Source of the DNA: a virus
Length of the DNA stretch: 64,000 nt
IMG/VR virus record: IMGVR_UViG_3300016667_000666
Coordinates: 1 to 64,000 of that record
Strand: one strand, 5' to 3'
Shown: positions 13,656-25,781 of the stretch, in pieces
Numbering within the stretch: the first letter of the stretch is position 1
How the letters are laid out: each line of letters opens with the position of its first letter
Notes under the pieces: generated by a model
Database searches by the model: none
Seen by the model: the letters and a program-made list of their open reading frames with translations, nothing else
Told to the model about the DNA's origin: nothing
Program-made: the position numbers and the translations under genes

Positions 13656-13693
13656 GTTCACCTGCAACGCTCACCTGCAGATATGGATGTGAG
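13656..13693 (+). repeat. Intergenic element family A, copy A1
   Basis: GTTCACCTGCAACGC-CTCAC-CTGCAGATATGGAT-GTGAG, starting 2 nt after the stop codon. Confidence 0.85.
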
Positions 13694-13705
13694 AAATACA
13701 AGATT

Positions 13706-13729
13706 GCGAACTACACAGTGTAGATTCGC
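13706..13729 (+). repeat. Hairpin family B, copy B2 (identical to B1)
   Basis: GCGAACTACACAGTGTAGATTCGC, 24 nt upstream of ATG 13754. Confidence 0.85.
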
Positions 13730-13753
13730 CTATGCCCACGAAAGGACAAACTA

Positions 13754-14053
13754 ATGGCTGTCATCACCGTTCGAAAAAATGAAAAAACGACCTCGAAGGT
13801 CGTCGCAATCGCGACGACCGCATACGTGGTCGTTAGTGTCCTTGTCGACGGCACCCAAGCCACTGCGGTGGCTTGGGGCGCCAACGACCCCGCTATCCGG
13901 TTGACTCTCAAGTTCGACGCCGCCATCAACAACACTGTTATCGTAGACTACGTCTGCGAGGACAAGGAAGTAATCGTCTCAACCGGGGTCTTTGAGGCCC
14001 CACGACAGGACGCGCTGCTGTTGGACATCTTAGAGGCGTTACGGCGCTTCTAG
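13754..14053 (+). CDS. Hypothetical protein (99 aa)
   Basis: SD GAAAGGA lies 8 nt before the ATG. Confidence 0.7.
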   Translation: MAVITVRKNEKTTSKVVAIATTAYVVVSVLVDGTQATAVAWGANDPAIRLTLKFDAAINNTVIVDYVCEDKEVIVSTGVFEAPRQDALLLDILEALRRF

Positions 14054-14055
14054 GA

Positions 14056-14094
14056 GGTCAACCTGCAACGCTCACCTGCAGATATGGATGTGAG
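14056..14094 (+). repeat. Family A, copy A2
   Basis: GGTCAACCTGCAACGC-CTCAC-CTGCAGATATGGAT-GTGAG, right after the stop. Confidence 0.85.
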
Positions 14095-14106
14095 AGTATC
14101 AAGATT

Positions 14107-14129
14107 GCGGACTGCGAGTGCAGATCCGC
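14107..14129 (+). repeat. Hairpin family B, copy B3 (GCGGA-CTGCGAGTGCAG-A-TCCGC)
   Basis: The outer stem covaries relative to B1 (GCGAA/TTCGC becomes GCGGA/TCCGC). Confidence 0.8.
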
Positions 14130-14149
14130 TTAGCTCAAAGGAGCACACC

Positions 14150-14485
14150 ATGACGACGATTATCATCACCACCGCCGCCGGCGAGACCGTCACTATCGAG
14201 ACGGTAAGTGCGGTCACCGTCAACGTCGACGGCGTGACCGTCACGTTCACCCCCGCCGCCGAAGAGCCCGCCGCCGAAGAGCCAGCCGTCGAGGAGCCCG
14301 CCGTCGAGCACTGGTTTAGTATTTGGTGTCGCTGCGAGTGGTGCGACGCAATTCGGGTCGCCTTGGAAAACTGCATCTACGAACAACCGTGGAGTTGTCC
14401 CCGATGCGAAAGCATCAACAACTACACCTCGCCCATATGCGAGGTCTGCGACACCGACATTAGCGTCGCCCACCGCGTGAATTAG
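14150..14485 (+). CDS. Hypothetical protein (111 aa): AAEEP repeats and C-terminal multi-Cys zinc-ribbon-like region
   Basis: SD AAAGGAG lies 7 nt before ATG 14150. CRCEWC...CPRC...CEVC motifs present. Confidence 0.7.
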   Translation: MTTIIITTAAGETVTIETVSAVTVNVDGVTVTFTPAAEEPAAEEPAVEEPAVEHWFSIWCRCEWCDAIRVALENCIYEQPWSCPRCESINNYTSPICEVCDTDISVAHRVN

Positions 14486-14530
14486 TCGGCGAAACACGCT
14501 ACTCAGTGCGATTGAGTAGCGTGTCTACGG
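14486..14530 (+). repeat. Family E, copy E2
   Basis: 45/45 nt identical to E1. Confidence 0.85.
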
Positions 14531-14559
14531 CATGTAGCCGTACTGACTTCGCCGTCAGT

Positions 14560-23590: not shown

Positions 23591-23661
23591 TCCACCCTGA
23601 GTGCGGAGGCAACAGGTTAAACTTTCCGCTTATTCTTTACTGTTTCTTAGAAAGGAACAAC
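23591..23661 (+). repeat. Family C, copy C3
   Basis: TCCACCCTGAGTGCGGAGGCAACAGGTTAAACTTTCCGCTTATTCTTTACTGTTTCTTAGAAAGGAACAAC. Confidence 0.85.
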
Positions 23662-23662
23662 T

Positions 23663-24007
23663 ATGTCAATCTTACTGAGCTTGGAACTGCGACACGGGGA
23701 CTACGTGACGTATCCGACGGTTCACCTCCCCTTGGATGAAGACGACGATGTGATGGAGGACGACGACGAGCTGTGCGCGCTTGGTGTCGCACAGCTGCGT
23801 GCCATGACCGGTATGGCTCCTCCAGATCATGCTTTTATCGACACTTGGGACTCTTCTGATGGGTTTGCCCCAGAGGAGGTAGACCCCCCGTTCGTGTCAA
23901 TTCACTACACTGTGGCTGAAATTGTAAAGGCGGGTCTGACTGCCAGCGAATTTCAGCAAATCGTTACCGAGTTTGCTAATCAGCTTCTTAGCAAAAAAGG
24001 AGAATAG
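23663..24007 (+). CDS. Hypothetical acidic protein (114 aa)
   Basis: The SD lies within C3. Confidence 0.65.
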   Translation: MSILLSLELRHGDYVTYPTVHLPLDEDDDVMEDDDELCALGVAQLRAMTGMAPPDHAFIDTWDSSDGFAPEEVDPPFVSIHYTVAEIVKAGLTASEFQQIVTEFANQLLSKKGE

Positions 24008-24009
24008 TA

Positions 24010-24420
24010 ATGTCTTTCTTCACACGCGACAAGAACCGGTTTGGTGAGAACAAGTACGTCGTCACTGTCATCTGGCGTTCCGGAGACGTCTGGGCGCCGC
24101 TCGGCCTCCATTACTTTGTCTTTGACAACAAAGAAGAGGCCGAAGTGTTTTTTACCGACAAAGACCGGGCTCTCCGACAACGTTGGGAATATAACTGGCT
24201 AAACCAAGGCAACACATTTTGGACAGCCCGGATTCTTGTGATTCTTACCCAGCGCGACGGGCACTCGGAAAGAGGATGGCAAGGCTTTACCCTCAGCGAC
24301 GAAGAGGTTGTGCGTTCTTGTTTACAGCGCGAGATGGACCCGGAGCCCTGTCTTGCAGAGCGGGCCAAGCTGCTTGAGTCGCGTGACGTGCCGCTGTGGG
24401 TCGGCTGGAAGAAGGAATAG
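24010..24420 (+). CDS. Hypothetical protein (136 aa)
   Basis: SD AAAGGAG lies 7 nt before the ATG. Confidence 0.65.
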   Translation: MSFFTRDKNRFGENKYVVTVIWRSGDVWAPLGLHYFVFDNKEEAEVFFTDKDRALRQRWEYNWLNQGNTFWTARILVILTQRDGHSERGWQGFTLSDEEVVRSCLQREMDPEPCLAERAKLLESRDVPLWVGWKKE

Positions 24421-24492
24421 TCCGCCCTGAGTACGGAGGCAACAGGTTAAACTTTCCGTGTATTCTTTATTGTGTTTCTCAGAAAGGAAACA
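24421..24492 (+). repeat. Family C, copy C4 (stem variant ACGGA/TCCGT)
   Basis: TCCGCCCTGAGTACGGAGGCAACAGGTTAAACTTTCCGTGTATTCTTTATTGTGTTTCTCAGAAAGGAAAC. Confidence 0.85.
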
Positions 24493-24499
24493 AAGCACT

Positions 24500-25405
24500 A
24501 TGTCAGCACAAGTTGCATTCGAGGCCTTTGTGGAGATGTTGCTCGAGGCTGTGGAGCGGGGTGAGAAGACCGGAACATGGGTACGCCCGTGGGCCACTAT
24601 CGAGCCGCAACGATTTGACGGCAAGCTCGTGTACAGTGGTACCAACACGGTGTTCCTGTCCATGTACGCACACATGATCGAGCGTGCACAGCAGCAGGCT
24701 GAATGTCCGTACACGCACGAGCGTTTGCGGCTGATCTGGCAGGCCTGCCGAGACTTACCAAAGTTTACGCCGTACTACGGCACACTCAATCAATGGAATG
24801 AGGTCGGTGCTAAAGTCAAGGCTGAGGCCAAAGGCTTGCCGTTGATCCGCGGTAAAAGCGGTGTCAAAGAACTCGATGACGGGACGTTTAAGTACTACTC
24901 GTACTTCACCTCGTTCACTGTGTTCAACTCATCTCAGGTAGAAGGTTGGGAGCCACCTGAGGTTCAAGTCACCGATGCCGATACTGCCGCCGAGCAACGG
25001 TTTCACGACCTGATTGCTAAGCACAATCCCAAGGTCGTGCCTGCAGATCAAGCAGCGTTTGTCCCTCGCAAGGACGAGTTGTGGATGCCGGATCGAGAGT
25101 CGTTCCCAAATCGGAATGACTACTACGGCACGTTTGTACACGAGATGGTGCATTGGACAGGTCACGAGACTCGGCTGAACCGTAAGTTTGGGACAGATCG
25201 TCCCACGTACGCCTTCGAAGAGCTTGTGGCTGAGCTCGGCTCAGCAGTGCTTAGCACGTCGCTGGGCTTCACGGTCAACGACCGCAACACGCAGGCGTAC
25301 CTCTCTAGCTGGGGTAAGTGGCTGCGCGAAGATAAAACGGCTGGACGTCGTGCGTTGCGGCTTGCACGACAAGCAGTAGAGTACCTCGAGAAAGGAGGTG
25401 AGTAG
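24500..25405 (+). CDS. ardC: ArdC-like antirestriction protein: N-terminal ssDNA-binding (DUF1738-like) domain plus C-terminal HExxH metallopeptidase domain (301 aa)
   Basis: TGTWVRPW...YSGTNTVFL is N-domain-like. FVHEMVHWTGHETRLNR matches the ArdC/polyvalent-protein metallopeptidase motif. Confidence 0.7.
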   Translation: MSAQVAFEAFVEMLLEAVERGEKTGTWVRPWATIEPQRFDGKLVYSGTNTVFLSMYAHMIERAQQQAECPYTHERLRLIWQACRDLPKFTPYYGTLNQWNEVGAKVKAEAKGLPLIRGKSGVKELDDGTFKYYSYFTSFTVFNSSQVEGWEPPEVQVTDADTAAEQRFHDLIAKHNPKVVPADQAAFVPRKDELWMPDRESFPNRNDYYGTFVHEMVHWTGHETRLNRKFGTDRPTYAFEELVAELGSAVLSTSLGFTVNDRNTQAYLSSWGKWLREDKTAGRRALRLARQAVEYLEKGGE

Positions 25406-25406
25406 A

Positions 25407-25745
25407 TTGCCATCATATTTTATCTACGTACTGTCGTTGTTTTGGGCAAACGCAGGATTCGCACCGGGACGGTACCACATCCTGCACTCAAGCAGGTCGC
25501 TGTACATCTGTCGGCTGCATATTCTGCGGCATGGCGGGTACGGCATCGTGTACCATCGGCCAGTCGATCATCCTCGTGCTCCGGTAGAGTGCTGGGAAGC
25601 GGGCGTGCTGATCTGGCAAGACCGCCAGCTGTACACGCGCATCGCAACTCAAAATGTCAAGATCCAGCAGATGCTTGACAAGTCGTACCAGCGCGGCTCC
25701 GGCTGGACGATTCCTGACATCGACGATCGCGTCCCCCCTCTCTAG
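25407..25745 (+). CDS. Hypothetical protein (112 aa), TTG start
   Basis: SD AAAGGAGG lies 8 nt before TTG 25407. Its stop is followed by A6. The start is uncertain. Confidence 0.4.
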   Translation: MPSYFIYVLSLFWANAGFAPGRYHILHSSRSLYICRLHILRHGGYGIVYHRPVDHPRAPVECWEAGVLIWQDRQLYTRIATQNVKIQQMLDKSYQRGSGWTIPDIDDRVPPL

Positions 25746-25750
25746 GCTGT

Positions 25751-25781
25751 CTTGGCAACGCTCACCTGCGTCAGATGTGAG
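25751..25781 (+). repeat. Family A, copy A6 (shortest loop)
   Basis: CTTGGCAACGC-CTCAC-CTGCGTCAGAT-GTGAG. Confidence 0.75.

Follow-up and report, generated by a model that had tools for sequence, protein, structure and literature searches.

The window analysed here, 64,000 nucleotides (nt) of the viral record IMGVR_UViG_3300016667_000666 in IMG/VR, holds six intergenic copies of a short repeated element, which we call family A, each lying a few nucleotides downstream of a stop codon. Covariation in two interleaved helices indicates that family A is very probably a classical H-type RNA pseudoknot of 29-32 nt in the sense (+) transcript. We suggest that it is a portable, cis-acting RNA element between cistrons, met by the ribosome at termination and serving as a barrier or insulator. 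The statement as a whole, pseudoknot structure together with punctuation function, is given a probability of roughly 0.4, and about the functional part we are slightly more tentative still. At minimum, family A is a new and well-supported family of structured RNA, represented by 42 distinct sequences in which two helices covary, and the operon that holds it, from a phage lineage not yet cultured, is unusually dense in RNA structure. H-type pseudoknots are well known as cis elements; what is new is family A itself, its strict anchoring at ordinary stop codons, its multiplicity, and a multi-family architecture that approaches a knot after every gene.

Structure of family A

The six copies share the motif GCAACG-CYCRC-CTGC, and all are on the + strand, co-oriented with the genes, with 0.4-7 kb between neighbours. 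Exact matches to GCAACGCYCRCCTGC number six, at 13664, 14065, 14760, 17030, 18418 and 25755; each of the remaining nine matches has three mismatches, at a chance expectation of 7.5 for three mismatches or fewer. The parts of the element follow in the order S1a (5 nt), L1 (A-C-G), S2a (5 nt), L2 (C), S1b (5 nt), L3 (5-8 nt, ending G-A-U) and S2b (5 nt), S1 and S2 being the helices and L1 to L3 the loops. Copy 1 (13662-13693, +) reads CTGCA, ACG, CTCAC, C, TGCAG, ATATGGAT and GTGAG in this order and begins 7 nt after a TAG at 13652-13654. Copy 2 (14063-14094, +) has an identical core, 9 nt after a TAG at 14051-14053. Copy 3 (14758-14787, +; TTGCA-ACG-CCCAC-C-TGCGG-TAGGAT-GTGGG), 9 nt downstream of a TAA at 14746-14748, has two G-U wobbles in S1, and copy 4 (17028-17057, +; CCGCA-ACG-CTCAC-C-TGCGG-TAGGAT-GTGAG), 7 nt downstream of a TAG at 17018-17020, shows a compensatory change from U-A to C-G in the same helix. 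Copy 5 (18416-18447, +; CTGCA-ACG-CCCGC-C-TGCAG-ATATGGAT-GCGGG) follows a TAA at 18407-18409 by 6 nt. Copy 6 (25753-25781, +; TGGCA-ACG-CTCAC-C-TGCGT-CAGAT-GTGAG), 7 nt after a TAG at 25743-25745, represents a subtype with an S1 of 3 base pairs (bp), which is also found in the related loci L228 and L169.

The arms of S2 occur as CTCAC/GTGAG in four copies, as CCCAC/GTGGG at 14758 and as CCCGC/GCGGG at 18416, and the five bases before ACG (CTGCA, CCGCA, TTGCA) are complementary to, and change jointly with, the first five bases of what had looked like a loop (TGCAG, TGCGG). Relatives were gathered by a pattern scan of viral contigs, which gave L053 (with L019), L060 and L073. A structure-aware regular expression found more divergent versions of helix 1 (CCTCA/TGAGG, CCACA/TGTGG, TAGCA/TGCTA) and helix 2 (CCTAC/GTAGG). 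A profile of sequence alone, built so as to avoid selecting for pairing, was then used on the window and on 13 related loci from viral and metagenome scans. It returned 50 matches, 42 of them distinct, on a single strand within each locus, and at E<1 it added nothing to the six window copies. Counts from the wider genome and metagenome pattern scans are lower bounds, and most of the matches listed there are chance matches in GC-rich genes; they do not establish an absence of family A from bacterial genomes.

In the alignment of the 42 distinct copies (........[[[[[...(((((.]]]]]........))))).....), S1 is paired in 92% of cells and S2 in 100%. In each helix three of the five pairs show two-sided changes and none varies only on one side, and one-sided change is confined to 5 of 417 cells, all in S1 and all wobbles. 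The pair types in S1 include UA/CG/AU/UG, GC/UA/AU/GU and CG/UA/UG, and the unpaired S1 cells trace to the subtype of copy 6, L228 and L169, which retains only the inner 3 bp. None of 500 shuffles matched the observed pairing or covariation score, and pairing fell to 19-46% when the 3' partners were slid by 1-3 columns. G-U wobbles appear only when the + strand is read; together with the co-orientation of the copies with genes, this points to a sense RNA. The loop lengths (3 nt for L1, 1 nt for L2 and 5-8 nt for L3) are compatible with coaxial stacking; in H-type knots L1 needs at least 1-2 nt to span S2, L2 has 0-1 nt, and L3 needs at least 3-4 nt to span S1. All 42 copies keep the unpaired A of L1, the C of L2 and the GAU at the end of L3. 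Covariation of this kind shows selection on each helix singly and is not proof that S1 and S2 coexist. A nested fold, in which the 5' flank GTTCAC pairs with S2b and encloses an S1 hairpin, was rejected, as it shows no covariation and is equalled by 497 of 500 shuffles.

Much of what the sequence-only reading had described agrees with these results, namely the six + strand sites, the three arm combinations and the variable length of its 'loop'. Its printed consensus contains one C too many: GCAACGC-CYCRC, like GCAACGCCYCRC, matches none of the six sites, the real motif being GCAACG-CYCRC. It was right that the element follows stop codons, and wrong in placing it 0-6 nt behind them, because the semi-conserved flank GTYCAC had been counted in the element; the core of the window copies begins 6-9 nt after the stop. 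That the covarying arms reflect a base-paired single strand, and not protein half-sites or a two-box promoter, is borne out by the full pairing of S2, and the covariation persists with homologues added. The proposed CYCRC/GYGRG stem stands, and the hairpin with a variable loop does not, since the TGCRG within that 'loop' pairs with the upstream CYGCA and covaries independently.

The element had also not been recognised as any described phage regulatory element, and in the Rfam searches too it matches no described family. Rfam 15 matched no family A copy over 12500-27000 at E<=10, a search of 13640-13760 with lax filters gave only a spurious U6 match, and at gathering score no family A match was obtained in the window and nine relatives. 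The families so tested, all unmatched, include preQ1, guanidine-III, put, pistol, twister, hatchet and the RAGATH motifs. Two resemblances to ribosomal RNA were seen. The segment L2-S1b-L3 of copies 3 and 4, ACCTGCGGTAGGAT (14772-14786 and 17042-17056), agrees at 13 of 14 positions with ACCUGCGGUUGGAU, the 3' strand of helix 45 in 16S rRNA, a strand that is conserved universally; this is probably a coincidence, as S1b covaries in other copies. The UCACCU in the 5' flank of family A equals the anti-Shine-Dalgarno region. Sequestration of Shine-Dalgarno (SD) sequences by UCACCU was considered and rejected, as UCACCU has no complement in the SDs that follow the window copies.

Stop-codon anchoring and a possible role in punctuation

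Family A is tied to the end of the upstream gene. In 41 of 44 distinct contexts S1a begins 5-14 nt behind an open reading frame (ORF) of at least 40 codons, in 37 of these 5-10 nt behind it. The stop is TAG in 31 of the 41 contexts, TAA in 10 and TGA in none, and the next base is T (U) in 24. The next start codon lies anywhere from 0 to 179 nt away. Each window copy has a stop codon before it and an SD and a start codon after it, and the usual downstream layout is an A/U-rich linker, often a hairpin of the 5' untranslated region (5'-UTR), and then the SD and start of the next ORF. Promoter-proximal leaders (12600-12829, and the one after the promoter at 15166-15195) have the shared 5'-UTR hairpin without the pseudoknot, and family A is therefore to be assigned to the upstream cistron, at its end, and not to the start of the downstream one. 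Paralogy of the flanking genes was rejected as the cause of the repeats, as the window ORFs that flank the copies are not paralogous to each other. In the relatives, the ORFs flanking the copies have almost no homologue in the window, while the element itself matches down to E 1e-15. Family A is a portable, gene-independent module.

Toeprints and the geometry of frameshift spacers place the mRNA entrance of the ribosome 5-10 nt past the stop codon. With the stop codon in the A site, the 5' edge of the knot would sit at this entrance, and because of this the ribosome would meet the knot exactly at termination. The terminating ribosome would encounter a mechanically stable structure, melting part of it, and the knot would refold after release. 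Refolded, the knot and the downstream hairpin could insulate the next cistron from upstream ribosomes and from sequence context, leaving almost no naked RNA for Rho or scanning RNases, and if the A/U-rich linker were cut the knot could cap the resulting RNA segments. A candidate hammerhead followed by an SD, found in the same operon, may be a ribozyme version of the same kind of boundary. Sequence conservation of the element would secondarily supply homology for the swapping of ORF cassettes. Strong pseudoknots are documented roadblocks for ribosomes (PMC3245918).

Several points weigh against this proposal. The evidence for the function consists of position and anatomy. The 5-10 nt spacing could simply be the minimal gap that gives ribosomes access to the stop in a compact genome, an account that is mildly disfavoured by the hammerhead, which begins only 0-3 nt after its stop. 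The invariant A, C and GAU could reflect contact with a specific protein or ligand instead of tertiary structure. A plain hairpin would also be a barrier, and the proposal gives no reason for the use of a knot. The subtype with a 3-bp S1 would be a weaker knot.

Family A shares features with several known systems. Recoding pseudoknots, such as those of -1 programmed ribosomal frameshifting (-1 PRF) and of the gag-pol UAG of murine leukaemia virus (MuLV), are likewise compact and H-type, with helices of ~5-7 bp, short L1 and L2 and a position 5-10 nt past the A-site codon, whereas family A has no slippery site, no consistent frame, a strong termination context, independent initiation of the next ORF and many copies per operon. 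The leader knot of T4/T2 gene 32 is a phage mRNA H-type with coaxial helices, tens of nucleotides before the ribosome-binding site (RBS) and followed by A/U-rich sequence (PMC3014915); it is present as a single copy on one autoregulated gene, whereas family A has at least six copies per genome, next to unrelated ORFs and placed by the upstream stop, and no sequence similarity between the two was seen, nor an Rfam match. PeSLs, composite motifs of T4-type phages, resemble family A in being short conserved intergenic modules around non-homologous ORFans of hypervariable regions, more conserved than the genes they separate (PMC2839356, PMC4122927). They combine a stem-loop terminator with an early promoter and act at the level of DNA and transcription, in contrast to a covarying RNA pseudoknot without promoter hexamers. 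T7 early RNase III sites and RiboJ-type synthetic insulators (a ribozyme plus a hairpin) are also repeated structured elements that define or insulate the messages of an early polycistronic mRNA, and the operon described here shares with them a candidate hammerhead with an SD behind it; family A itself differs in having no long RNase III duplex. ToxI units are pseudoknots of ~32-36 nt with a phage connection (PMC3475682), arranged in a tandem array beside a toxin gene and processed by the toxin, whereas family A is dispersed behind stop codons with no toxin gene nearby.

If the proposal is right, family A would be a portable RNA part of natural origin, setting the limits of genes on polycistronic mRNA of the bacterial type, placed as frameshift-stimulating knots are, yet at ordinary stop codons. 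It would open to test how terminating ribosomes handle downstream tertiary structure, how phages keep shuffled ORFan cassettes expressible whatever their neighbours, and whether pseudoknots act as insulators beside hairpins and ribozymes, which would be useful in the design of synthetic operons.

Alternative explanations

The main rival, because of the invariant loop bases, is that the knot is an operator for a trans-acting RNA-binding protein that co-regulates translation or decay of many early cistrons, in the manner of T4 gene 32 or RegA, or of CsrA acting on the GGA of L3. The A of L1, the C of L2 and the GAU of L3 stay invariant while the stems drift, and several copies lie within one operon, both of which an operator would explain. 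In T4 gene 32, binding of the protein along an A/U-rich tract starts from a pseudoknot 67 nt upstream of the start codon (PMC3014915). Family A is positioned, however, by the upstream stop and not by the downstream RBS, which is 30-76 nt away and usually separated from it by a hairpin; the loops differ in the other pseudoknot families of the same gaps; and the operon encodes no recognisable RNA-binding regulator. A protein annotated as RNA-binding (DUF2828/vWA) is encoded nearby at 11119-12543, and it was rejected as a specific partner, as its 80 homologue loci are in unrelated phages without family A. As for CsrA, UACAGGAUGU (L3 and S2b in some copies) resembles its consensus from in vitro selection, RUACARGGAUGU; a CsrA site was rejected, the GGA not being invariant (AGA in 3 of 42 copies). 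We consider an operator unlikely. It is quite unlikely that the repeats are mainly blocks of DNA homology for PeSL-like recombination of ORF cassettes, with the RNA fold incidental, even though the element is near-identical between phages whose flanking ORFs have no detectable similarity, in a hypervariable ORFan region, and PeSLs flank ORFans in hyperplastic regions and mediate their shuffling (PMC2839356, PMC4122927). Homology-driven recombination would favour identical copies and gives no reason for compensatory double changes, unaccompanied by one-sided ones, in both interleaved helices, the G-U wobbles imply that a single strand is read, and no early promoter is embedded as it is in PeSLs. 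The recombination boundary that the sequence-only reading had envisaged is accordingly retained as a genomic correlate, the flanking ORFs being non-homologous between relatives, and not as an explanation of the interleaved compensatory changes; PeSL-like shuffling of cassettes is probably a real by-product and not the selected function. A signal for RNA processing, either a new small self-cleaving ribozyme or a cistron-boundary cut made by a host or phage RNase, is highly unlikely. A candidate type II hammerhead occupies the equivalent post-stop position at 13097-13193 and is kept in relatives, and the linker ARUAYMAAGAYU of three window copies would fit an RNase E-like single-stranded site, RNase E preferring A/U-rich single-stranded RNA. 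With ~30 nt and 10 bp, family A is nevertheless smaller than any known self-cleaving class and matches no Rfam ribozyme; the linker is not kept across relatives; there is no 3' CCA for RNase P; and the RNase III site of T7 early type suggested before, which would be a duplex of ~20 bp, often with an internal loop, is contradicted by the presence of just two 5-bp helices. Two further suggestions made with it also failed, an antiterminator like HK022 put on account of wrong anatomy, too many copies per operon and no Rfam match, and an attenuator or terminator for want of a U-tract and of support for an alternative pairing. None of the six sites was picked up by a scan for intrinsic terminators, and their tails are purine-rich and A/U-rich.

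The remaining possibilities are weaker. Knots that mimic a host RNA, such as a ToxI-like antitoxin or a CRISPR repeat, and titrate a defence protein would resemble family A in unit size and fold (ToxI being a 36-nt pseudoknot), and the operon contains an ArdC-like anti-restriction gene. A phage can escape ToxIN by means of a pseudo-ToxI RNA (PMC3475682), and RNA anti-CRISPRs are solitary repeats in phage intergenic regions (PMC10651486). Such a decoy is very improbable here, given that the copies are dispersed and not tandem, that no ToxN-family domain was found among 32 operon proteins, that no CRISPR arrays or array-like multiple matches occur among the genome and metagenome matches listed, that compensatory differences among the copies of one genome are unexpected for a mimic of one host RNA, and that strict stop-codon anchoring would be left unexplained. 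Scarcely plausible is a recoding signal by which ribosomes finishing the upstream ORF would be induced to read through its stop or to shift frame, like the UAG-plus-pseudoknot of MuLV or -1 PRF. The distance from stop to knot, 5-10 nt in 37 of 41 contexts, equals the spacer of ~5-10 nt in recoding pseudoknots, and UAG dominates. Against it, the codons before the stops are unrelated and share no slippery heptamer, the spacer has all lengths from 5 to 10, with no fixed remainder modulo 3, so that the knot would be read in three frames with no conserved extension peptide possible, U after the stop (24 of 41) makes for strong termination, and each ORF downstream is equipped with an SD and a start codon of its own. 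The least plausible reading is a DNA-level promoter for a phage RNA polymerase (RNAP) of T7 type or N4 hairpin type, or for the host. It would account for a highly conserved block of ~35 bp repeated before many genes in co-orientation, ACG-CTCAC loosely resembles T7-group promoters, and a virion RNAP could be concealed in an unannotated ORF of 2940 amino acids (aa). Recognition of a duplex would not, however, be expected to leave two covarying, interleaved helices with wobbles, and there are indels of 1-3 nt within the block, unlike in the contiguous conserved block of ~20 bp of T7-type promoters. N4 promoters have stems of 5-7 bp and loops of 3 nt, compared with 11-14 nt here in a 'loop' that is itself base-paired, and they occur as a few copies at the genome end, whereas the copies here are at least six and lie mid-genome. 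Pseudoknots of unrelated sequence take the equivalent sites in other gaps, the terminator ahead of the operon, after which a promoter is needed, has no copy behind it, and the operon has a canonical sigma70-like promoter at another place. Searches of the window with Pfam, PHROGs and PDB detected no RNAP gene, the window being part of a genome, which leaves the absence of the gene unproven. Promoter-like hexamers are absent at the six sites, and the -10-like strings after the knot lack the final T; a sigma70 reading (TTCACC-N18-TAGGAT-like) was rejected as forced, since the most conserved part would be 'spacer' and the spacing varies.

Other structured elements and the operon

Family A is one of several predicted pseudoknot families with unrelated sequences and a common topology, which together fill most gaps of the operon. 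At least five further families share the layout S1a-L1-S2a-L2-S1b-L3-S2b and an A/U-rich L3 (UUAAAC-like), and are kept in related contigs. A post-stop knot at 16237-16285 (+) reads GUCCG-GUA-CUCCC-G-CGGAC-...-GGGAG, and inspection of the gaps suggests the same topology at 16519-16570, 17495-17540 and 20324-20365. Knots at 22186-22230, 23591-23635 and 24421-24465 were grouped as 'Family B' and those at 15524-15575 and 18983-19030 as 'Family C', the latter covarying in its pseudoknot-forming helix S1 (CCGG/CCGG to GCGG/CCGC to GCAG/CUGC); weaker post-stop knots are predicted at 21296 and 20880. With a simple finder of H-type pseudoknots, a stop-proximal knot scoring at least 25 was obtained in 13 of the 21 gaps of at least 45 nt in the ~16-kb operon, and 14 reached p <= 0.01 against shuffles. 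The same cut-off was reached at 0 of 15 other junctions in the window, in 3.5% of random 60-mers from the same region and in 1.0% of 3165 post-stop segments from 80 unrelated viral loci.

The candidate type II hammerhead (13097-13193, +) lies behind a stop codon with an SD downstream. Its Rfam score of 27.6 bits (E=0.046) is below the gathering score of 37; by inspection it has a complete core, with CUGACGA, GAAA, GUC and three helices. It is kept in the relatives L060 (~5905-5981 and 6805-6881), L229, L188, L212 and L176, and its stem II covaries (CGGC/GCCG in the window, CAGC/GCUG in L060). A degenerate second copy at 14487-14560 has a broken core (CUGACUU).

The third recurrent element is the 5'-UTR module, an (A/C)ATTGCGG-type hairpin (GCGRR-CTRCA-CAG-TGYAG-A-YYCGC) followed by an SD resembling TTAGCTCTTGAAAGGAGCA, which precedes unrelated ORFs at 12783-12829, 13706-13753, 14107-14149, 17070-17125, 25785-25837 and other places. 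After copy 1 the hairpin spans 13706-13729 (+; GCGAA-CTACA-CAG-TGTAG-A-TTCGC) and is followed by an SD and an ATG at 13754. It recurs after copy 2 (14107-14129, +), preceded by a 12-nt A/U-rich linker AGTATCAAGATT, after copy 4 (17070-17094, +), preceded by GAGTATAAGACT, and after copy 6 (25785-25809, +). The 12-nt linker ARUAYMAAGAYU between knot and hairpin is conserved in three window copies and not across relatives. Hairpin and pseudoknot are separable, as the hairpin and SD occur without a knot at ~12783-12829. Taken together, the stop-anchored knots (at least four to seven families), the hammerheads and the 5'-UTR hairpin may form a modular punctuation system for shuffled accessory genes, in which knots would engage the terminating ribosome to control release, re-initiation, or RNA cleavage or protection; we regard this wider proposal as possible, if doubtful.

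All six family A copies lie in one transcription unit of ~32 small ORFs (12600-28440, +), bounded by strong intrinsic terminators at 12572-12597 and 28391-28432 in a terminator scan and containing a canonical sigma70-like promoter, TTGACG-18-TATAAT, at 15166-15195. Its ORFs are almost all ORFans, the only recognisable products being the ArdC-like anti-restriction protein and an L5 gp82-like protein, and we infer that the unit is an early or accessory operon. TAG ends 19 of the 32 operon ORFs (12830-28381) and TGA only 2, and TAG ends 9 of 44 elsewhere in the window, by crude gene calls; the operon TAG stops often have T next and C before (CTAG). Within 15122-15195 (+), a perfect 16-bp hairpin (GCCCACCTACACACTA...TAGTGTGTAGGTGGGT) directly 3' of one stop codon leads straight into the sigma70-like promoter, the best of the region, which gives the appearance of a PeSL-like terminator/promoter composite. 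Just 5' of the operon, the ORF at 11119-12543 (+) encodes a 474-aa protein with DUF2828, DUF7788 and a vWA domain (PHROG 850, 'RNA-binding protein'), possibly Ro60/TROVE-like, followed by the strong terminator and a non-coding leader of 286 nt; this ORF served as a marker to fetch relatives.

The window derives from a divergent tailed phage and has genes for a ribonucleotide reductase, a large terminase with an intein-like insert, a portal protein, DnaB, a primase and a PolA-type DNA polymerase. A megablast search found no DNA-level relative of the region among 50,697 phage records and the DNA polymerase has at most 28% identity to that of any cultured phage, from which we infer that no annotated relative exists. 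The 2940-aa ORF (55134-63956, -) gave no significant Pfam, PHROG or PDB match and only sub-threshold nuclease-like scores; its identification as an N4-like virion RNAP was rejected as unsupported by tblastn, Pfam, PHROGs and PDB, no similarity to N4-like phage records having been obtained, and a segment of ~120 aa is similar to tape-measure proteins. Two tRNAs were found, for Leu (anticodon TAG; 9710-9794, +) and Arg (anticodon TCT; 32130-32206, -), neither of them a suppressor. In the large terminase (2069-4666, +; 865 aa), a weak intein-splicing match over residues 85-416 points to an intein insertion.

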